Below the pieces are notes generated by a model. That model saw nothing but the letters and a program-made list of their open reading frames with translations. It ran no database searches and was not told the DNA's origin. The position numbers were made by a program, and so were the translations under genes. This document shows, piece by piece, positions 18,182-63,433 of a stretch of 64,000 nucleotides of DNA. This stretch comes from a virus (Duplodnaviria; Heunggongvirae; Uroviricota; Caudoviricetes). The stretch is taken from the IMG/VR virus record IMGVR_UViG_3300043425_000245. The stretch is one strand, 5' to 3'. Numbering within the stretch: the first letter of the stretch is position 1; every line of letters begins with the position of its first letter.

Positions 18182-19636
18182 ATGATTTTTGAAATTCACG
18201 CACAACTGCAAACTGACCCTAATGATAAGAAGGTTTTTTATTATGACAACATGAAGAACATTCTTAAAGATTCTGCTGGAGTTGTCATTGAGTATGCTAA
18301 CATTCAACCGAATCCGAATAGAAAAGAGTTTACTAACTTCAGTAAGGATATCCCTTTAAAGAAGTCAAAGGCAATTAACCACCTGAAGATTCAGCTTGGT
18401 CTTTCTTGCAACTATTCTTGCGATTATTGTTCACAACGTTTCGTTGAGCGTGCACCAGAAACTTCTAAGAAAGATATTGACGCTTTCATGGCTAAGTTGG
18501 AAAACCTTGAGTTCAACGAACAAGACGGTCTTCATGTAGAATTTTGGGGTGGTGAACCTTTAGTTTATTGGAAGACTCTACGACCACTCGCTGAGACTAT
18601 CAAGGATAGATTCAAAGACTGGGAAAAGAAGCCATACTTCTCTATCATTACAAACGGTTCTATCTTAACTGATGAGATGATTGACTGGTTGATGATGATG
18701 AACTTCCAAGTTAGTATTTCACACGATGGACCAGGACAATCTGTGCGTGGTCCAGACCCATTCGATGATCCAGAAGTTAAAGAACGAATTCTTGGTTTCT
18801 ATCGTATGATGACACGTTTGAAGAAGCCATTCAGTTTCAACGCAATGTTGAACAATAAGAATACTTCAAGAAAAGCTATTTACGATTGGTTCGTAAACTT
18901 GACAGGTGATCCAGATGTATCGCTTGGAGAAGGTTCTATCGTTGATGCGTATGAAGAAGATGGTATTGTAAATTCTCTTACAACTAAGCAACAACATTTT
19001 GAATTCCGTCGCCAAGCCTTTGGTGAGATTTTTTCAACCAACGGTCAAATTGGTTTTAAGAGCATCATTATGAAGATGGCTGACTTTGGTCAACGAGTCT
19101 TGACTCATGAAGAATCAATTTACCTTGGTCAAAAGTGTGGTATGGATGATGAGCGTACTATCGCAGTTGATTTGCGTGGTAATGTTATCACTTGCCAAAA
19201 CGTTTCTGCCGCTGAAGTTTCCAAGAATGGTGAGTCACACCTTGGTGGTAACTTAGACAACTATGATGATGTTCAATTTACTTCTTCCACTCACTGGTCT
19301 AATCGTAAAGAGTGTCCAGAGTGCCCAGTGCTACACCTATGTAAAGGTGCTTGCATGTTCTTAGATGAAAAGTTCTGGGACATCAGCTGCGCTAACTCAT
19401 ATTCCGACAACGTTGCTCTTTTCGCCTTGACTTTTGTTAAGTTGACTAATGGGTATATCCCAACCCTGATTAAGAGCGATACTTTACCTCTAGACCGTCA
19501 GGATATCTGGGGTTCTATCTTTGAACATAAGGAAGAGCCTAAAAAGAAGATTATCCCGATCAAAATCGTGGCTGAACAGGTTGGTAAAATCGACGATGTT
19601 ACAGTTTATGGTAAGTCTAGAATCGAGTCAGTATAA
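18182..19636 (+). CDS. radical SAM enzyme with C-terminal SPASM-type domain
   Basis: CNYSCDYC triad, FWGGEPL, ITNGS, ISHDG; CG..DxxGNVxxC and CxxCxxxxxCxGxC..C auxiliary cluster motif. Confidence 0.92.
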   Translation: MIFEIHAQLQTDPNDKKVFYYDNMKNILKDSAGVVIEYANIQPNPNRKEFTNFSKDIPLKKSKAINHLKIQLGLSCNYSCDYCSQRFVERAPETSKKDIDAFMAKLENLEFNEQDGLHVEFWGGEPLVYWKTLRPLAETIKDRFKDWEKKPYFSIITNGSILTDEMIDWLMMMNFQVSISHDGPGQSVRGPDPFDDPEVKERILGFYRMMTRLKKPFSFNAMLNNKNTSRKAIYDWFVNLTGDPDVSLGEGSIVDAYEEDGIVNSLTTKQQHFEFRRQAFGEIFSTNGQIGFKSIIMKMADFGQRVLTHEESIYLGQKCGMDDERTIAVDLRGNVITCQNVSAAEVSKNGESHLGGNLDNYDDVQFTSSTHWSNRKECPECPVLHLCKGACMFLDEKFWDISCANSYSDNVALFALTFVKLTNGYIPTLIKSDTLPLDRQDIWGSIFEHKEEPKKKIIPIKIVAEQVGKIDDVTVYGKSRIESV

Positions 19637-19639
19637 ATA
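19632..19639 (+). promoter_or_regulatory. T4-type late promoter
   Basis: Perfect TATAAATA 20 nt before ATG 19660. Confidence 0.75.
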
Positions 19640-19659: not shown

Positions 19660-20547
19660 ATGACTCTTCCAGTATCTCCTAATTCTATCTCTGTTTCCAA
19701 TGTAACGACAGAAGTTGGTGTAACAACCAACTCTGCGACATCAGGGGCAGACTTACAGTGGCTGAACGGATATATCAAACCCGTGGAAAGACCTACGCAA
19801 CCTAATATGCAGTCTTTCTATGGATTGGCTTACTTTACTAGAAATATTGACGGTAATTGTAACAATGCTTCCGCATCAAACTGCAACTGTAACTGCGGTA
19901 ACATTCAGTGTAGCGCATCAGCTAACTGTACAAACATTAACTGTGTAAACTGCGACACAGCACAATTCCTTCAATCAAATTGTAACTGCGCTTGTACATA
20001 CAACTGCGTTTCTAACGCCAACTGCTACTCATACAACTGTAACTGCTCTAAGATCATTTGCACTAAGTTGCATGAACTAGGTTTGATGCCTAATGATATT
20101 TTTGTAGCTGACCAAGCGTTTGGTGAACAGTTAAAGAAAACTGATCCAGAAGTTTACGAGGGGTATGTTCGTTGGGCTTCTGTTATTGTTTCTGGTATGG
20201 AAGGTACAGCCCCTGACTTTATGTTGTGGGTTAACAAAACTGACAGAAAAGAAGTTGAGAAACAAGCAACTATTAAGTGGGCACAGAAAGTGGCTAAACC
20301 ATGGTCTGAACATATGGCTTACTTGATGGGTGTTATCCCAGAAGATAACAACGTTGGACGTTTGATCATGAAGATGGGACGCCCACTTTCTAGACTTGCG
20401 GCTAAATTGCCAAAGAACTATAAGTTTGGATTATTTGGCGCTGTTACCCTTTGGATGATCTGCCCTTCATTGTATTACGCAGCAACTGCTATTGATAAAG
20501 TTCAATCACTATTATCAGTAGAACTATGGACTAAACAAAATGGATAA
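19660..20547 (+). CDS. Asn-Cys repeat protein, putative radical SAM substrate / virion appendage protein
   Basis: N-terminal MTLP..ISxSxV..E..FYG motif typical of phage fibre-tip proteins; residues 67-129 contain 15 Cys; C-terminal KIICT..GY..W domain. Confidence 0.8.
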   Translation: MTLPVSPNSISVSNVTTEVGVTTNSATSGADLQWLNGYIKPVERPTQPNMQSFYGLAYFTRNIDGNCNNASASNCNCNCGNIQCSASANCTNINCVNCDTAQFLQSNCNCACTYNCVSNANCYSYNCNCSKIICTKLHELGLMPNDIFVADQAFGEQLKKTDPEVYEGYVRWASVIVSGMEGTAPDFMLWVNKTDRKEVEKQATIKWAQKVAKPWSEHMAYLMGVIPEDNNVGRLIMKMGRPLSRLAAKLPKNYKFGLFGAVTLWMICPSLYYAATAIDKVQSLLSVELWTKQNG

Positions 20548-20971
20548 GCAACCAACAGAACAAGAACTACTAGATCTTAATATTGGGATTGTTCCTGCTT
20601 TAGATACATTTCAACAAAACCCGTTTCCAATTGGAACCATTAAGTTTGTTGATGATCAAGAGTTAGTATACAAACACGAACATGTTATGCACTGGATGGA
20701 TAACATTGTAATGTCTAGAACTTTAAACTTATCCGCAGAAGACAAAGATCGTTATTTCCAGATGATCACTGATTATGCAGATATCCTTATGAAGATTGTT
20801 GGCGATGATAACCATATTATTTGGAAAGCTGCATTGGGTAAACCTTTCGATGATTTAGAAAAGCATGCTAACAAATCAGGCGCTCAGATTGATTATGAAA
20901 AACCTAAAAAGTTGCTTGATGAGTTCTATGCTTGGCAAGAAAAACAACCAAAAAGTAAAAAGAAGAAATAA
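20540..20971 (+). CDS. hypothetical protein in the radical SAM cassette
   Basis: Overlaps the previous stop. Confidence 0.7.
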   Translation: MDKQPTEQELLDLNIGIVPALDTFQQNPFPIGTIKFVDDQELVYKHEHVMHWMDNIVMSRTLNLSAEDKDRYFQMITDYADILMKIVGDDNHIIWKAALGKPFDDLEKHANKSGAQIDYEKPKKLLDEFYAWQEKQPKSKKKK

Positions 20972-21028: not shown

Positions 21029-21745
21029 ATGAATAATCCGAAAACTGAAGAAGATCGTAAACAATATCATTGGTATCAAAATGCCCAGAATATGTTTTGG
21101 AAAAGTCCAATCTGGGAAGTTGACCTTGGTTATGACACTGAGTGGAATGAAGCGTTACTTGAAGAAATCTACGACATTGGTCGTAATATCACATTAGGTG
21201 TTGACAAAACTCCAAGTAATAGTATCTGGGATTATGCTGACAAATATCCTCATCTAAAAGAAATAAAACAAAAGATTATTGATGTGGTCACTATGACCAT
21301 TACTAAAGAAATCCCCGAGATTCGCATGCTGAATATCAAAGGGTGTGAACATTTTATGGGTTGGATTAATGTTCGCGAACCAGGAGAGTCATTAGAAGTT
21401 CATGGGCATACTGAATCAGCCATCGCTGCGACATATTATGTTAAAGCAAAAGAAGGCTGCGGCGATATTGTTCTTTTCGACACTGCAGGTGCTATTGATT
21501 TTGAAAATAATCGTTTGAGTGGTTCTCCATACGTTCGTGCACGTAGATTTAAACCAGTTGAGGGGCGATTAATATTCTTCCCTAATTATATTCTTCATGG
21601 CGTTGACCCTAATTTGTCTGATGACCTTCGTATCTCGCTAACAACAGATATTCGCAAAGTCGTTGACCCCAATGCTTCAAATACAGTTATTCTTAAAACA
21701 TGGGCAGGTCGTATGTCTAAGATTAAAGAATGGAAGCCTGAATAA
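21029..21745 (+). CDS. 2OG-Fe(II) oxygenase-like protein (TIGR02466 type)
   Basis: WINV..GE..HxH..ATYYV..LIFFPxYxxHxV..N...RIS. Confidence 0.85.
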   Translation: MNNPKTEEDRKQYHWYQNAQNMFWKSPIWEVDLGYDTEWNEALLEEIYDIGRNITLGVDKTPSNSIWDYADKYPHLKEIKQKIIDVVTMTITKEIPEIRMLNIKGCEHFMGWINVREPGESLEVHGHTESAIAATYYVKAKEGCGDIVLFDTAGAIDFENNRLSGSPYVRARRFKPVEGRLIFFPNYILHGVDPNLSDDLRISLTTDIRKVVDPNASNTVILKTWAGRMSKIKEWKPE

Positions 21746-22281
21746 TGTTCTGTAAAGTTAATTATGAATTTGAAAAACCCTTATATGTTGTTACAGAAGG
21801 TTTAAAACGATTCACTGGTCATGAAGGGCGTGGTATTGATTATAAGAAAATCTGGTCGCCTGATGTGGAAAAGTTAATGAGCATAATCCCAAAAAGATAT
21901 TGGGGTGATTTTCACTTAACTGTTATGACTATCAACCGAGATATACCTGCGCACACCGACACAGATATTATTACCACGATCAATTACTATCTAGATTCAG
22001 GTGGTGATGATATTGATACAATATTCTTTGAATCAAAAGTGGATAACCCTAAAAAGTTTCAGATTGAAAATCAAATTGATGGTTATATTTTTGAAAAAGA
22101 AGATTTAGTTGAAGTTGGTAGGTTTAGAGCTAAACCAATGGAGTGTTGGGTTTTGGATGTCAAGAAAATACACAGCGTTGATGGAAATGTAACTGGAGTT
22201 AGAAAAGCTGTTACAATTGGCACATTTATTCATAACTATGAAGCTGTTGTTGAAATGATTAAGGAAACTGGATGTTTGTAA
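21745..22281 (+). CDS. Fe(II)/2OG oxygenase-fold protein
   Basis: IPAHTD..INYY..WVLDVKKIHSV..RKAVT (HxD..H..R); paralogue of next ORF. Confidence 0.7.
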   Translation: MFCKVNYEFEKPLYVVTEGLKRFTGHEGRGIDYKKIWSPDVEKLMSIIPKRYWGDFHLTVMTINRDIPAHTDTDIITTINYYLDSGGDDIDTIFFESKVDNPKKFQIENQIDGYIFEKEDLVEVGRFRAKPMECWVLDVKKIHSVDGNVTGVRKAVTIGTFIHNYEAVVEMIKETGCL

Positions 22282-22802
22282 AACTCAAAAACAGTTTTGA
22301 AAAACCATTATTCACTACCATTGACGGGTTGACATCATTTGCTGGAATAGATGGTAAAGGTGTTGGTCATAAAAAGGTTTGGTCGCCTGATGCTGAACAG
22401 TTTTATTCAGTTATTCCTAAAAGATATTGGGATGATTTTGATTTTACGTTGATGACTATAAATTCAGCGATATACCCTCATATTGATAGAGATTATATCT
22501 CGACTGTCAATTTCTATCTGGAAACTGGCGGTGAATATAAAACTTTGTTTTTCTCAGATGGTGAACTAGCTAATATTAATGGTGATGTTGATTATTCAAG
22601 CGGTGTATATGACGAAAGCACTCTTACTGAGATAGGTTCTTTCGTGGCAAAGAATAATGAAGCATGGTTACTGGACGTTTCTGTGATACACACTGTTCAT
22701 AATATTCATGGGAATGAAAGAAAAGCCCTTTCGTTGAGAACCAAGAAATACAACTACACTGAAGTGTATAATATGTTAAAGGAAACTGATAATGTGGTAT
22801 GA
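22272..22802 (+). CDS. Fe(II)/2OG oxygenase-fold protein
   Basis: IYPHID..VNFY..WLLDVSVIHTV..RKALS; paralogue of previous ORF. Confidence 0.7.
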   Translation: MFVKLKNSFEKPLFTTIDGLTSFAGIDGKGVGHKKVWSPDAEQFYSVIPKRYWDDFDFTLMTINSAIYPHIDRDYISTVNFYLETGGEYKTLFFSDGELANINGDVDYSSGVYDESTLTEIGSFVAKNNEAWLLDVSVIHTVHNIHGNERKALSLRTKKYNYTEVYNMLKETDNVV

Positions 22803-23568
22803 AAGATTAGATGTTCAATTTGATATTGAACGATTAAGAAAAGATGTTCGCGAGCACGTGTTCACCTTGGGTGATCAAGTTATTCAAGGTGAAGAATATG
22901 AAACTCCTCAGTATCATGGGTTTGGTGGTTGGACTTTATTAAGTAGAACTGCTGATTGGAGAGATGGTTGGGAAGCTATTCAAACTGAAACTGGTACATC
23001 CCTTGAGCAAATGTTACCAACTCAAGAGTTAATTTTAAAAGCTCACAAGCACTTTGGTATTGCCCATAGTCTTGAACACGATAAACCAACTCAAGCATAT
23101 GTTGGTTACATTAAAGAAGTTATTGATACTTTAAAAGATATGGGTTTGACTCCACGAAGAGCAAGAATTACTTGTTTAAAAGCTGGATGTAAATCTCTCG
23201 TACATAAAGATGCTGACACAACTGAGTATATGGCACGTTTACATATTCCTCTTTGGACGAATGAGAAATGCGTTCATATTTGTGAGGGTGATAACTTACA
23301 TATGAAAGCTAATGGTTCTGCATACATCCTATGGACTAACTTGTGGCATCAAATTCGTAATGATTCAGATGAAGATCGTTACCATATTATAATGGATGTT
23401 TATGACACCAAAAAGATTACTCAAAACTTTAAATATGAAGGTAATTTTGAAGAGCTAGAAAACTTTGTGCGTGGTACAAGAGAACAAGTTGAATCTGTTG
23501 AATTGACTGAAGACGATAAGGAATTCTTTGATGCGTTGAAGAAAAGATACGTCACAAAAAAGGCTTGA
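22792..23568 (+). CDS. aspartyl/asparaginyl beta-hydroxylase-like oxygenase
   Basis: ARITxL..G..HKD..RLHIPLxTN..HxxxNxSxxDRxHII. Confidence 0.8.
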   Translation: MWYERLDVQFDIERLRKDVREHVFTLGDQVIQGEEYETPQYHGFGGWTLLSRTADWRDGWEAIQTETGTSLEQMLPTQELILKAHKHFGIAHSLEHDKPTQAYVGYIKEVIDTLKDMGLTPRRARITCLKAGCKSLVHKDADTTEYMARLHIPLWTNEKCVHICEGDNLHMKANGSAYILWTNLWHQIRNDSDEDRYHIIMDVYDTKKITQNFKYEGNFEELENFVRGTREQVESVELTEDDKEFFDALKKRYVTKKA

Positions 23569-23593
23569 CTTCCAATAAATAATCAGGTATAAT
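23565..23593 (+). promoter_or_regulatory. sigma70-type promoter of tmRNA gene
   Basis: TTGACT-17-TATAAT. Confidence 0.85.
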
Positions 23594-23599
23594 ATAGGT

Positions 23600-23916
23600 T
23601 ATTGCTGTAATCCCTTCAAAGCGAAGGACTTCTGGACGGGGGTTCGACTCCCCCCATCTCCACCAAAAGCACATACATCGCTTCTCACCTGAAATAGTGC
23701 GATGGTACAGATGATAGTGGTGAAGTAATATCTGCTTATGTGTGCTTTTGATGGGGATGCCATGGTTTCGACAGGGGTAGATAGTAGAGACGGCAGCACG
23801 TCAGGAGTAGACGTTAAAAGCAAATCAAACTAAATGCAAACGATGAAGTTTTCGCATTGGCAGCCTAAACGCTGACTAGGGTTTCGATGGGTTTCCTCGT
23901 AACAGAATAACCCATC
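23600..23916 (+). ncRNA. ssrA: circularly permuted (two-piece) tmRNA, tag ANDEVFALAA
   Basis: T arm and acceptor 3' end GGGGGTTCGACTCCCCC-CATCTCC-A-CCA (to 23665) precede the 5' end GGGGATG..TTCGAC (23753); G3-U70 pair; tag ORF 23836-23868; outer ends approximate. Confidence 0.92.
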
Positions 23917-23933
23917 ACTAATTCGGAGATATT

Positions 23934-24437
23934 ATGATCGGTGTTGTATTAGGTAATGGTCCAAGTCGTGAGTTCTACGATAGAAAAGGTGATATTGTCC
24001 TTGGTTGTAATATTCCCAATGAACAATTCAGCGTAGATGCGACTGTTATTTGCGATGAAGAAATTGCTTGGATTATTAAGAATGACTTGACTTTAATTCA
24101 AGTTCCAGTTATAATATCTACTAAGGTGTTTGAAAAATTAAAAGAGTTTAAGATTGAAGACCAGTTTATAATCTTAGACGTTTTCAAACCTAAAGACTGG
24201 TACAATGCAGCCCACTATGCTGCAGAATATTTGATACAAAACACTGAGTGTGAACAGATAGAGTTATGGGGTTGCGACTCTATTTTTGAGAATACTGTTT
24301 CATCTACAACTGGAAAATTAATCCAGCAAAGCACTCAAGGTGATACAAGGTTTGTTCGTAATTGGCGTAGAGTTTGGAATGAGATGCACCTGAATAACCC
24401 TGATGTGCATTTCGTGGCTATGAGAATGCCTAAATAA
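23934..24437 (+). CDS. hypothetical Rossmann-like protein
   Basis: VLGNGPSR..GCN..IELWGCDS motif, as in sugar-transferase-like phage proteins. Confidence 0.65.
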   Translation: MIGVVLGNGPSREFYDRKGDIVLGCNIPNEQFSVDATVICDEEIAWIIKNDLTLIQVPVIISTKVFEKLKEFKIEDQFIILDVFKPKDWYNAAHYAAEYLIQNTECEQIELWGCDSIFENTVSSTTGKLIQQSTQGDTRFVRNWRRVWNEMHLNNPDVHFVAMRMPK

Positions 24438-57011: not shown

Positions 57012-57256
57012 GTCTAGTACAAGTTGATGGTTTTAATTCTTTGAGAAAGGACACCGCTACTGGCGGTGTCGTTAATGTTGACAAGAAATCATATGAAGCC
57101 CATAAAGCTCAAAAGATGATTGCTGTTAGAAACGCACAAGCTCAAAAGTCTACTCAAGAATCTGTAACCATGCTGCAGGATGAAATAAATATACTAAAAG
57201 CTGATTTAGTTGACATAAAAACTTTATTGGTTAAATTAATAGAAAAAGGTAACTAA
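57008..57256 (+). CDS. small coiled-coil virion-module protein
   Basis: ATGA overlap; typical follower of DUF4815 genes. Confidence 0.7.
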   Translation: MSLVQVDGFNSLRKDTATGGVVNVDKKSYEAHKAQKMIAVRNAQAQKSTQESVTMLQDEINILKADLVDIKTLLVKLIEKGN

Positions 57257-58497
57257 TGGCTGCTATTAACCTTAGACGAGACAAGGAAAGACCTCTAACA
57301 ATCGAAGAAGTAGATAATAACTTCGACGCGATTAACAGAGAGGTTGGCACTAAACTAGATACAGAATCTTTCAATGCTGAAAACATCTTATCTGTTTTAG
57401 ATGGTAACGCAGGTTTAGGGTCTGGTTTGGATGCGGATTTAGTCCGTGGTAAAACTCCAACAACTCAAGCTGTACCAGACACTTCAGTTCTTAGAGATTC
57501 TCTTGGTAACATTAATGCAAACCAGTTTTATGGTTTGCACGTCGGTGACGTTCTAGGCGACGTTCAAGGTGTTGTTACTGGCGCTCTTATCGGTAACTCT
57601 ACAAACGTTGATGGTGTGGTACAAGTGGACCACGGTGGTACTGGTGCAACTACACCATCAGCTGCCCGAACAAACCTTGGTCTTGGTTCTATCTCTACAC
57701 AGAATAAAAACACTGTAGATATTACTGGTGGTTCTATCACTGGTATTACTGACTTAGCAATCGCGGATGGTGGTACTGGTGCTTCTACAAAAGAAGGTGC
57801 TCGTTCAAACCTTGGTTTGGTTATCGGTCAAGATATTCAAGCCTATGCTGCTATTCTTGGTGGTATCAGCGCAACTATTGGCGATGGTTTGGTTGTTAGA
57901 ACTGCAACAAATACTTCTGTTATTAGAAAGTTTGTTGAGGGTAACTCTATTGAAATTACTAACGAAACTGGTAAAGACGGCGACATTACTATTGGTTTGA
58001 CTCTAGTCCCAACAGTAACTGCTATCACTAAGGGTGGCACTAATGCCTCTGGTGATATTGGCCAAGCGGATAACCGTTTTGGCGGTGCACACCTTACTAG
58101 CGTTGGTGTTGGTATTGGTGCTTCTGGCACAGCTGGTGAAGTTAGAGCAACAAATAACATTACTGCTTTTTATTCTTCTGACGCTTCATTAAAAGAAAAT
58201 ATTCAAGATGTACGAAACCCTCTTGATATTGTATGCGCTATCGGTTCTAAGACTTTCGATTGGACTGATGAATACATCAAAGAGCATGGCGGAGAAGATG
58301 GTTACTTTGTTACAAAGTCTGATTTCGGCGTTGTTGCCCAAGACGTTTTAAAAGTATTCCCACAAGCAGTAAGAAAAAGAGAGAACGGTACTCTTGCAGT
58401 AGACTATGAAAAGTTAGCAACGCTATCATTTGGCGCTGTTAAAGAATTAAAATTTCAGCTTGATATGATCAAAAAGCATATCGGAATGGAAGAGTAA
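57256..58497 (+). CDS. tail fibre protein with C-terminal intramolecular chaperone (peptidase S74-like)
   Basis: K..PLT.EEVDxNF N-terminus; SSDxxLKENI..FDW..GVxAQDV..P.AV..VDYEKL. Confidence 0.88.
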   Translation: MAAINLRRDKERPLTIEEVDNNFDAINREVGTKLDTESFNAENILSVLDGNAGLGSGLDADLVRGKTPTTQAVPDTSVLRDSLGNINANQFYGLHVGDVLGDVQGVVTGALIGNSTNVDGVVQVDHGGTGATTPSAARTNLGLGSISTQNKNTVDITGGSITGITDLAIADGGTGASTKEGARSNLGLVIGQDIQAYAAILGGISATIGDGLVVRTATNTSVIRKFVEGNSIEITNETGKDGDITIGLTLVPTVTAITKGGTNASGDIGQADNRFGGAHLTSVGVGIGASGTAGEVRATNNITAFYSSDASLKENIQDVRNPLDIVCAIGSKTFDWTDEYIKEHGGEDGYFVTKSDFGVVAQDVLKVFPQAVRKRENGTLAVDYEKLATLSFGAVKELKFQLDMIKKHIGMEE

Positions 58498-60493: not shown

Positions 60494-61477
60494 GTGGCTT
60501 CATTATCACAATTATTAGAATCAAAAAGAGGCACATTCACTTCCGCAGAAGAAAACATTGAACAGGGTCAGATTTGGGTTTACACATCTCCTGCTCAGTA
60601 CACGGGTTATTGGAACAACTTCTGTTGGCAAGCGCCAGGGTGTGGTCACGTAACAGTTGAAGTTTGGGGAGCCTCTGGTTCCAGCGCTAAAATGTGCTGT
60701 TGCGGCTTTGGATTGCCAGGAAACCCAGGAGCATATGCTAAGAAAACAATTCACGTTCAACCAGGAGACTGGCTATGTGGAGACGTTGGTAAAGCGTGTA
60801 ACAACTCAAACGATCTATGTTTCCGTGGATGTTCTTCTCCAAGCTGGGTAGGCTGGACTGGAAGAGATTGCAGAGGTAATACTTCAGGATATATCTGCGC
60901 GCAAGGTGGTAAGGGTGGTGTCACTCTATGTTCTACTGGAACTTCTGCCACTTGCTGTTTTGGATTACAAGGTTTCTGCACTACATTGTACCCGTATGGT
61001 TGCGTATATGCCAGCGTTGTATGTAATACATGTCCAGGAGCTTGGATGCCAACAGCCAGCGGTGGTGATGTAAACTGCTGTGGTGGTTTCTCTTGTGCTT
61101 CGTTTATGTTATGCGCACCAGAATGTATGTGTACATATCACTACCACTTATCAACATCTCCAGGATTGTATGCTAAAGATGGTGGTGTTGCCACTCACAC
61201 AGTAGAAAACAATAACGAATTTGCAAACTGGTCTGGACAAGGGCACAGCCAAGCATTATCTGCAATTAATGCGCTAGGAAGATTCCCTTCTCAGTCAAAT
61301 AACTGGGCTTCTTGCTGGGGCTTCTCTGGTCAGTGCGGGTGTTACGACTCTGATGGTTGTACTCGCGCCATGCCAGTTGGTGTCCCAGGAACTGCACCAC
61401 ACCCATGTGCTGGTGTTCGCGATCACGCTCATACTGGTGGTAGCGGTGCTGTACGAATCAAATTTATTGCGGGATAA
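60494..61477 (+). CDS. Cys/Gly-rich fibre-tip (adhesin-like) protein, copy 1
   Basis: GTG start; EVWGASG..MCCC..GxxGAY.KK..GAVRIKF glycine-rich fold. Confidence 0.8.
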   Translation: MASLSQLLESKRGTFTSAEENIEQGQIWVYTSPAQYTGYWNNFCWQAPGCGHVTVEVWGASGSSAKMCCCGFGLPGNPGAYAKKTIHVQPGDWLCGDVGKACNNSNDLCFRGCSSPSWVGWTGRDCRGNTSGYICAQGGKGGVTLCSTGTSATCCFGLQGFCTTLYPYGCVYASVVCNTCPGAWMPTASGGDVNCCGGFSCASFMLCAPECMCTYHYHLSTSPGLYAKDGGVATHTVENNNEFANWSGQGHSQALSAINALGRFPSQSNNWASCWGFSGQCGCYDSDGCTRAMPVGVPGTAPHPCAGVRDHAHTGGSGAVRIKFIAG

Positions 61478-61480
61478 AAT

Positions 61481-62452
61481 ATGGCATCATTAAGACAAAG
61501 TTTATTAACAAAGTATGATACTATTGTTAACAATGAACAGAACTTAGAAACTGGTAGAATTTGGGTTTATAACGAAGCTACTGTTAGAACAAAGTTCTAT
61601 AACTGCTGGTGCTGGAAATCACCAGGTGTTGGTAAAGCTGTTATCGAAGCATGGGGTGCTGGCGGTTCTGCTGCACGTATGTGTTGCTGCGGTTCTGGTC
61701 TACCAGGAAACTCTGGTGCATACTCAAAGAAGACTATCTGTGTAGACGCTAACTCTAATATTAGAGGGTGTAACGGTTGGTCTTGTGGTAACTCTCAAGA
61801 CCTCTGTTTCCGTGGTTGCTCCGAACCAACAATGTTATGTTGGTGTGTAAACGCATCGTGCAATGGTTGCATGTGCGCTCAAGGTGGTATGGGCGGTTCA
61901 TCATTCTGTTCTACTGGTACTTCAATGTATTGCTGCTTCGGCGGTAACGGTTTTTGTGTTACTAAAACACTGAACGAAAACTGCGGTGTTGTTTGTAACT
62001 TTGGTACTGCTAGACCACATATCGCTTGCGCTTATGGTGGCGATGTTAACTGCTGCGGACAATTCAACTGTAAGAGTTTCTTTGGTTGCTATCCTAACTG
62101 CGTTTGCCAATTCCAACAACACATCTACGTCCCTCCAGGATTAATATCAGATGGCGGAGCTTGGTTGACATTTAACCACGAAGACTCTGGTACTTGGGAA
62201 ACATGGACAGGTTCAGGATTGGGTGGTTTCTTTACTGCTCTTGATGGAGCTTCTAAGAACCCAACAGCTGGTCACCCATATTCTGCGTGCTGGACAGGTA
62301 ACAGAGCTTGCGGTTGCTATGAAGCCATGGGATGTGTCGGTTTTATTCCAACTGGTATTGGTGGTGTTGGCACTAACGCTTGTCCAGATCACAGAACTGC
62401 TGGATATCGTGGCGGTCAAGGTGCTGTACGAATTAAATTTATTGCGGGATAA
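61481..62452 (+). CDS. Cys/Gly-rich fibre-tip protein, copy 2
   Basis: Collinear paralogue: EAWGAGG..MCCC..GAVRIKFIAG. Confidence 0.8.
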   Translation: MASLRQSLLTKYDTIVNNEQNLETGRIWVYNEATVRTKFYNCWCWKSPGVGKAVIEAWGAGGSAARMCCCGSGLPGNSGAYSKKTICVDANSNIRGCNGWSCGNSQDLCFRGCSEPTMLCWCVNASCNGCMCAQGGMGGSSFCSTGTSMYCCFGGNGFCVTKTLNENCGVVCNFGTARPHIACAYGGDVNCCGQFNCKSFFGCYPNCVCQFQQHIYVPPGLISDGGAWLTFNHEDSGTWETWTGSGLGGFFTALDGASKNPTAGHPYSACWTGNRACGCYEAMGCVGFIPTGIGGVGTNACPDHRTAGYRGGQGAVRIKFIAG

Positions 62453-62455
62453 AAT

Positions 62456-63433
62456 ATGGCGATTTCATTAAGATCAGCTTTACGAGATAGACATCCACAA
62501 GAGTCTAGAATCGAAGAAAACTTAGAAACTGGTACAGTGTATATGTACACTGGCGGCACATCTAGTGCTAACCTGTGGTCAGGTTTCTGTTGGAGAGCAC
62601 CTGCAGCTGGTACAGCTGTTATCGAAGCATGGGGTGCTGGTGGACCAGGATCCCGTATGTGCTGCTGCGGGTTCGGACTTCCAGGAAACTCTGGTGCTTA
62701 TTCTAAGAGAACAATTACAGTAGCTCCAGGATGTTATGTTTGCGGTACAACTGGCAACCCACCATGCTCATCTAGCTTATGTTTCCAAGGTTGTGGTGAT
62801 GCAACTGGTCTTTGCTGGTTCGGTAACGGTGGGGCTTCTGGATGTATGTGTGCAGAAGGTGGTAAAGGTGGTGTATCTATCTGTTCAACTACACCTTCTT
62901 TTTATTGCTGCTTTATTGCTAACGGCTTCTGTGGCAACAGAAAGAACCTACCAGACCAATGCGGTGTTATCTGTAACTACTGCCCAGGTATGTGGATTGG
63001 TTGTGCATATGGTGGCCAAACAAATATTAACAGTTTATTCAGCTGTGTTGAAACACGTCAGTGTTTACCAAACTGCCAATGTTATAACATCAACCATGTA
63101 CCAGTACCTGCAGGTTTATTCACGACGCAAGGTAGTTGGGTAGTTTATGAACCTGACTCTGACGGTAACGATGGTCCAGGACACTGGTCTGGTAACCAAT
63201 ACCCATCTTTCATCTCTGCTATGAGTGCTCTATCTAGAAACCCAAAGCGTGGATCACACAAGTATTCTTGCTGGCGTTCTGATAAAGTTTGCGGATGTTA
63301 TGAAATGACAGGTTGTCAAGCTCTATTACCTATTGGCGTTGGTGGTCTTCCACCACAGCCGTGCCCTGATGTTCGTGACCACGGTTTCCGTGGCGGCTGG
63401 GGTGCTGTACGAATCAAGTTTATTGCAAGTTAA
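62456..63433 (+). CDS. Cys/Gly-rich fibre-tip protein, copy 3
   Basis: Collinear paralogue: EAWGAGG..MCCC..GAVRIKFIAS. Confidence 0.8.
   Translation: MAISLRSALRDRHPQESRIEENLETGTVYMYTGGTSSANLWSGFCWRAPAAGTAVIEAWGAGGPGSRMCCCGFGLPGNSGAYSKRTITVAPGCYVCGTTGNPPCSSSLCFQGCGDATGLCWFGNGGASGCMCAEGGKGGVSICSTTPSFYCCFIANGFCGNRKNLPDQCGVICNYCPGMWIGCAYGGQTNINSLFSCVETRQCLPNCQCYNINHVPVPAGLFTTQGSWVVYEPDSDGNDGPGHWSGNQYPSFISAMSALSRNPKRGSHKYSCWRSDKVCGCYEMTGCQALLPIGVGGLPPQPCPDVRDHGFRGGWGAVRIKFIAS

Follow-up and report, generated by a model that had tools for sequence, protein, structure and literature searches.

An Asn-Cys tract protein of T4-like phages, its neighbouring radical SAM/SPASM enzyme and an exchangeable C-terminal module: a probable case of virion protein maturation

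Radical SAM/SPASM chemistry is familiar from bacterial peptides and from a few enzyme subunits. In the NxxcA/NxxcB, CteA/CteB (SCIFF), PapA/PapB and QhpC/QhpD pairs, a SPASM radical SAM enzyme adjoins a Cys-rich substrate, which in the case of QhpC is a protein and not a short peptide. Peptidase S74 (PF13884) and Hint are established self-cleaving domains. The acceptor residue of NxxcB is Asn, with Ala, Gln and Asp tolerated (PMC9389541). The T-even phages show a fibre-then-adhesin gene order, gp37-gp38, and gp38-type adhesins are monomers (PMC12032242). In a literature search that covered few subscription journals, no paper was found on radical SAM/SPASM maturation of virus particles or phage fibres, nor on the two C-terminal domains compared below, CFI-box-CTERM and KIIC.

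The window, the whole stretch of 64,000 nucleotides analysed here, comes from a T4-like phage and contains the gp59 loader, gp32, baseplate hub and fibre genes. An IMG/VR contig (L001) is nearly identical to this phage. The ORF at 19660-20547 (+) encodes a protein of 295 amino acids (P0001), which found no family in Pfam, NCBIfam, PHROGs or PDB sequence searches. It is preceded by a radical SAM gene and followed by a gene for a 143-aa protein and then by four oxygenase-type genes. The protein has 463 homologues of similar length, which together with synonymous codon variation rules out an ORF artefact. The AF2 model is composed of a small helical N-terminal domain, a core without resolved fold and a confidently modelled all-alpha C-terminal domain. 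A tripartite architecture had been proposed in the first-pass annotation, and natural swaps of the C-terminal part among relatives bear it out. Head, Asn-Cys core and KIIC end domain are three genuine modules. In profile searches made segment by segment, the N-terminus matched the N-termini of adhesins, and KIIC emerged as a module of its own with matches in 1443 clusters (50% identity).

The Asn-Cys core (19855-20049 (+), aa 66-130) is the predicted substrate and the predicted C-terminus of the mature protein. Residues 67-129 contain 15 Cys, of which 13 follow Asn (Asn66 counted), the same figures as in the first-pass annotation. Twelve NC pairs lie inside residues 67-129, a number never reached in 100,000 shuffles of the tract (maximum 11). 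The core is mostly without fold in the AF2 model (pLDDT <50). Analysis of 118 homologue cores revealed that Asn precedes 82% of the Cys, followed by Ala (10%), Gln (5%) and Asp (1%) at the same position. These four residues are the acceptor set tolerated by NxxcB. The tract is present across hundreds of phage homologues, being retained in every inspected member of the 463, and its repeat number varies (12-19 Cys in 63-98 aa). Synonymous variation in the Asn and Cys codons rules out a microsatellite origin. The NxxC motifs pointed out earlier are indeed present, but they are not enriched and arise as a side effect of NCNC runs. CxC contexts hold 33% of the Cys in homologue cores. Outside them, 85% of the Cys have Asn at -1, while Asn at -3 (19%) falls below its background of 35%, ruling out NxxC as recognition motif. 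Selection favours an Asn at -1 of Cys rather than NxxC. The acceptor Asn of NxxcB stands three residues before Cys, so that the adjacent Asn of this core represents another geometry.

The candidate maturase is a radical SAM/SPASM enzyme of 484 aa (18182-19636 (+), phrog_1802). It scored 39.7 bits against PF04055 (cut-off 29.5) and 32.7 bits against TIGR04085 (cut-off 27), with the seven-Cys SPASM motif present. The CxxxCxxC motif (Cys76/80/83) and the seven SPASM cysteines (Cys319, 338, 378, 381, 387, 391 and 403) make up ten Cys, all invariant in 56 orthologues. The top NCBIfam match was PapB (3.6e-24), and the scores for PapB (85.6 against 340), QhpD (83.9 against 453) and SCIFF (56.5 against 425) are all below the family cut-offs. 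Relatives in the PDB are 8VPO, 5WGG and 4K36, and the closest named families and structures act in the maturation of peptides or proteins. The SAM core has about 65 aa ahead of it, and a Pfam scan gave no PqqD match. No orthologue was found in GTDB genomes by a single-protein pattern scan of low sensitivity.

The tract and the enzyme are paired almost invariably. All 35 viral loci found through the radical SAM gene encode an Asn-Cys protein, many of these loci being close kin, so that the locus counts are not independent events. Among loci found through KIIC, the enzyme was present in 36 of 37 with an Asn-Cys tract and in none of 17 without it, where the upstream flank of long proteins was often out of view. 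The S74-ended and tail-less members that were checked also adjoin the enzyme. The Achromobacter siphoviruses JWF and 2-1 and the Ralstonia phage RSP15 encode a radical SAM protein of about 45% identity, and two or three genes upstream of it lies a tail fibre with a terminal Asn-Cys tract. In the JWF and 2-1 fibres a Hint domain comes after the tract, while in RSP15 the tract is at the very C-terminus. Across 24 loci, similarity of the core correlated with that of the radical SAM enzyme (rho 0.62) and little with that of the AspH-like gene (0.17). The former value is weak support, since the enzyme tracks the flanking exonuclease as well (rho 0.71). The pairing supports the modified core postulated in the first-pass annotation, and the Asn-Cys protein is probably the substrate of the neighbouring enzyme.

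As in the ranthipeptide systems, there would be many sites per chain and Asn would be the acceptor, here by prediction. The cassette differs from them in being phage-encoded, in the virion-part-like nature of its substrate, in an enzyme that lies under all family cut-offs and in having no evident cleaved leader. By this analogy, thioether chemistry on the core has about an even chance of being right.

Several related loci carry variants of this arrangement. In Ralstonia phage RP12, an unannotated ORF of 65 aa with a C-terminal Asn-Cys tract (L023:1960-2157) has virion genes on one side and three radical SAM genes on the other; the genome paper merely lists the enzymes (PMC5468394). An S74 version (L182:4452-8126) has radical SAM genes on both sides, two in all. 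A Trp-halogenase-like gene belongs to the cluster of one tail-less version (L184:8608-10134). RSP15 (L020:7314-8129) and another phage locus (L017:9887-10807) share a helper-like gene beside the radical SAM gene (25% identity over 175 aa, E 1e-6), which the cassette of the window does not have.

The gene of the 143-aa protein (20540-20971 (+)) overlaps the stop codon of the Asn-Cys gene. This conserved protein, a possible helper, showed no match to any family (Pfam, NCBIfam, PHROGs) or to any atlas entry. It is present in 46 of 55 loci; those lacking it are the S74 and tail-less loci, L100 and contigs that are truncated. The four Fe(II)/2OG oxygenase-type genes (21029-23568 (+), starting at 21029, 21745, 22272 and 22792) match PF13759, PF05118 and phrog_81. 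The last of them is Asp/Asn beta-hydroxylase-like, and two small paralogues possess HxD...H. Such genes are usually co-located with the cassette among related loci. They are possible further tailoring enzymes, with a weaker link than that of the radical SAM enzyme. The cassettes of L009, L011-L013, L015, L028, L029 and others have membrane desaturase-like genes inserted in them, in some cases two; these genes, of about 240 aa, were called by His-box pattern alone. Directly after the oxygenase cluster of the window, a permuted two-piece tmRNA was found (23573-23959 (+)). Its tag, ANDEVFALAA, resembles betaproteobacterial tags, which we take as a hint of the host. At about 60500-63433 (+), after the fibre genes, there are three tandem paralogous Cys-rich proteins of about 320 aa with 27-33 Cys, two of them matching phrog_4205. 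With 1-5 NC pairs each, they represent a different family.

The N-terminal domain (19660-19854 (+), aa 1-65) is of the fibre-tip or adhesin attachment type. Its model consists of three short helices (pLDDT about 80). The HHalign comparison of its profile gave a probability of 94% (E 1.3e-7, score 39; shuffled columns reached no more than 18), in a test partly circular through a template set seeded from a KIIC-bearing protein. The matches, all from cultured phages, are the N-termini of JC1 gp60, Itty13 gp10, YL1 gp67, phiXF1 gp9 and Rb1 gp28, and all of them except Rb1 gp28 are encoded right after an S74-ended fibre. The fibre-tip likeness claimed in the first-pass annotation thus holds, while the idea of a cleaved leader is better replaced by that of a retained domain: the 65 residues, judged by these profile matches, are probably kept for attachment. 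This protein is similar to the gp38 and JC1 gp60-type tips in its small size, in a gene position that at several loci comes behind an S74-ended fibre, and in having a short helical attachment-type N-terminal domain with a variable distal part. The distal part of T-even gp38 is polyglycine versus Asn-Cys here, and the homology detected is with the N-termini of the JC1 gp60 type and not with gp38. S16 gp38 was absent from the listed fold matches, in searches dominated by the C-terminal domain.

The position of the cassette varies. It comes after tail-fibre genes in L017, L014 and L196, and tail-less members in L017 and L196 have fibre genes directly upstream. In the clade of the present phage, its neighbours are phoH, exonuclease and gp59/gp32 genes, and the fibre genes are about 37 kb away. 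A complex prediction for the L017 fibre-tip trimer with its N-terminal domain scored 0.25, short of the mark of 0.34, and counts neither for nor against docking. JC1 gp60 is missing from the published virion proteome, as are the fibres gp57 and gp59 (PMC9144972). The S74 and gp38 analogies conflict, because S74 implies a trimer and gp38-type adhesins are monomeric. A 413-aa tail fibre with S74-type chaperone end (57256-58497 (+)) is a candidate docking partner in the window. An exact T4-type late promoter motif, TATAAATA (19632-19639 (+)), is situated 21 nt before the start codon. Of 55 loci, 23 have it at most 70 nt ahead of the gene (background 0.6%), and the neighbouring oxygenase and exonuclease genes have none. 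A location of the protein at the virion tip is fairly likely.

KIIC (20050-20424 (+), aa 131-255) is all-alpha in the AF2 model with a pLDDT of 95. Full matches start 104-185 aa from the C-terminus and keep the Cys corresponding to Cys134 in 140 of 140 cases; the only pointers to a catalytic mechanism are this invariant Cys and an invariant Asp. Of these 140 full-length matches, 90 have a Gly-rich linker ahead of KIIC, 11 an Asn-Cys tract and 5 a Hint domain. Its passengers include baseplate-hub, DUF4815 and Gly-rich proteins as well as some bacterial proteins, and the cultured phages SynMITS9220M01 and HMO-2011 encode KIIC proteins. It also ends non-fibre proteins such as an InlB-repeat protein (P0247) whose start resembles a signal peptide. 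In Sneathiella genomes (L143-L147), low-complexity proteins end in KIIC, with weak phage-family matches nearby. Fold searches with KIIC led back to its own viral relatives alone. The best solved match, the NEL domain of SlrP/SspH1 (Z 7.0, rmsd 3.1, 107 aligned residues, 5% identity), was dismissed as a functional clue, its score being typical of ordinary helical bundles.

Head and core are also found with other ends. The N-terminal profile search retrieved them with peptidase S74 in 8 proteins and without any extension in 12. The S74-ended P0324 and the KIIC-ended P0054 are 91% identical over head and core. In a tree of 60 rows, including 30 KIIC rows drawn at random, S74 needed 5 changes, at least 4 of them forced by well-supported branches; S74 members formed one clade in none of 200 bootstrap trees, the bootstrap being not fully converged. 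The sister phages L001 and L008 are 90% alike in the radical SAM protein and 78% in the core, and only 39% in KIIC, the one part in which they differ sharply. Residues 131-295 of P0001 gave no PF13884 or Hint match in Pfam. Judged from these sequence comparisons, KIIC is a mobile C-terminal module exchangeable with S74, Hint or nothing. Like S74 and Hint, it is strictly C-terminal, mobile among virion proteins and joined to the tract at the same junction. It differs from them in having no sequence relation, an all-alpha fold and an invariant Cys near the start, and its self-cleavage and chaperone action are putative. A RiPP follower recognised by the enzyme was rejected, since KIIC is freely swapped and occurs on many proteins without tract or radical SAM gene. 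As S74 and Hint self-cleave, the most economical interpretation is a mature protein that would end at the tract, with KIIC shed or dispensable. The occupants of the slot give indirect support to the removable follower of the first-pass annotation, whose other option, a membrane anchor, is weak. Putative removal of KIIC from the mature protein is slightly favoured.

The moderately hydrophobic C-terminal helix (20425-20547 (+)) is restricted to the long type of KIIC. The best 19-residue Kyte-Doolittle mean of P0001 is 1.38, a marginal value, and 76% of long-type against 11% of short-type members exceed 1.6. The hydrophobic tail described earlier belongs to the long type and is absent from the short one. 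A likeness to CFI-box-type C-terminal domains had also been suggested, and it is architectural alone. CFI-box-CTERM (NF041770) and KIIC are both helical C-terminal domains after a Gly linker, with a Cys near the start and often a hydrophobic and basic end. Their conserved Cys stand in different registers, however, and no HMM or profile-profile similarity was detected. None of 51 family members and none of 10 distant members matched the NF041770 HMM, HHalign gave E values of 0.10-0.28, inside the shuffled range, and comparison with 30 genome-derived CFI-box domains revealed no homology. These comparisons leave room only for a very remote relationship. One homologue beside the radical SAM gene (P0329, L192:721-1524) possesses the same head and core followed by a weakly CFI-box-like C-terminal domain, with 3 of 1000 shuffles scoring equally high.

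We give a probability of about 0.5 to the reading that P0001 is a late virion-tip protein modified by the radical SAM enzyme, with a KIIC tail that is shed or dispensable. The protein would be synthesized late from the T4-type promoter. By analogy, the enzyme would then join Cys sulfur to a carbon of the neighbouring Asn, producing a multiply thioether-cross-linked tip, to which the oxygenases might add hydroxyl groups. KIIC, as a generic mobile processing or assembly module, would be lost. The product of about 130 aa, ending at the Asn-Cys tract, would dock on the fibre tip and would resemble the natural tail-less and S74 versions in this end. More tentatively, phages may cross-link their tips at Asn-Cys by radical SAM enzymes, and KIIC may form a third, all-helical, Cys-dependent self-cleaving class interchangeable with S74 and Hint.

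KIIC could also be retained, as a membrane tether or an assembly-targeting signal of the CTERM kind, leaving substrate and location unchanged. The hydrophobic helix with basic residues in most long-type members would suit such a role, as would the frequent Gly-rich linker and the early Cys shared with CFI-box-CTERM, the signal-peptide-like InlB-repeat carrier and the weakly CFI-like occupant of the slot in P0329. However, short-type KIIC has no hydrophobic helix and the slot is also filled by self-cleaving S74 or by nothing; where KIIC sits behind an intact Hint domain, it would be stripped off by cleavage at the N-terminus of Hint. We regard retention as fairly unlikely.

Two further readings concern the core. 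It may be a structural metal-binding or disulfide-ladder fibre, where the enzyme loads or makes a cofactor or, in place of forming thioethers, carries out another reaction, for example epimerisation or modification of Asn. HxH metal sites occur in T4 gp37, CxC is common in the tract, and the trimers implied by S74 versions could set Cys on a three-fold axis. The reaction of an enzyme below every family cut-off is also not assignable. This reading is improbable in view of Cys numbers that are both odd and even, a core without fold in the AF2 model, and a seven-Cys SPASM pattern and top matches that are those of peptide or protein maturases. A very unlikely alternative is a RiPP of the phage outside the virion, in which the N-terminus would be a leader, the oxygenases and desaturase-like genes tailoring enzymes, and the released core a toxin, superinfection-exclusion factor or metal chelator. 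The cassette does lie outside the structural module here, along with four oxygenases, and some loci add desaturase-like or halogenase genes. Against this, neither a protease nor a transporter nor any conserved motif for leader cleavage was seen, the N-terminus is homologous to adhesin N-termini, the tract belongs to a tail fibre in cultured phages, and S74 and the late promoter suggest structural proteins.

The reading of a modified virion-tip protein with a disposable KIIC tail, drawn from sequence and model comparisons, points to a probable undescribed variant of radical SAM/SPASM protein maturation on a probable virion protein. If true, the ability to work at a dozen Asn-Cys sites would make the enzyme useful as a cross-linking catalyst. 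The same reading would bear on why such proteins escape virion proteomics. The tips that contact the receptor would be chemically matured, affecting how host range is read from sequence. KIIC itself, a domain present in more than 1400 sequence clusters, lacks annotation. Its natural swap with S74 at the same residue makes it a candidate new autoprocessing or chaperone module, and phages may use it as a new kind of disposable tail.
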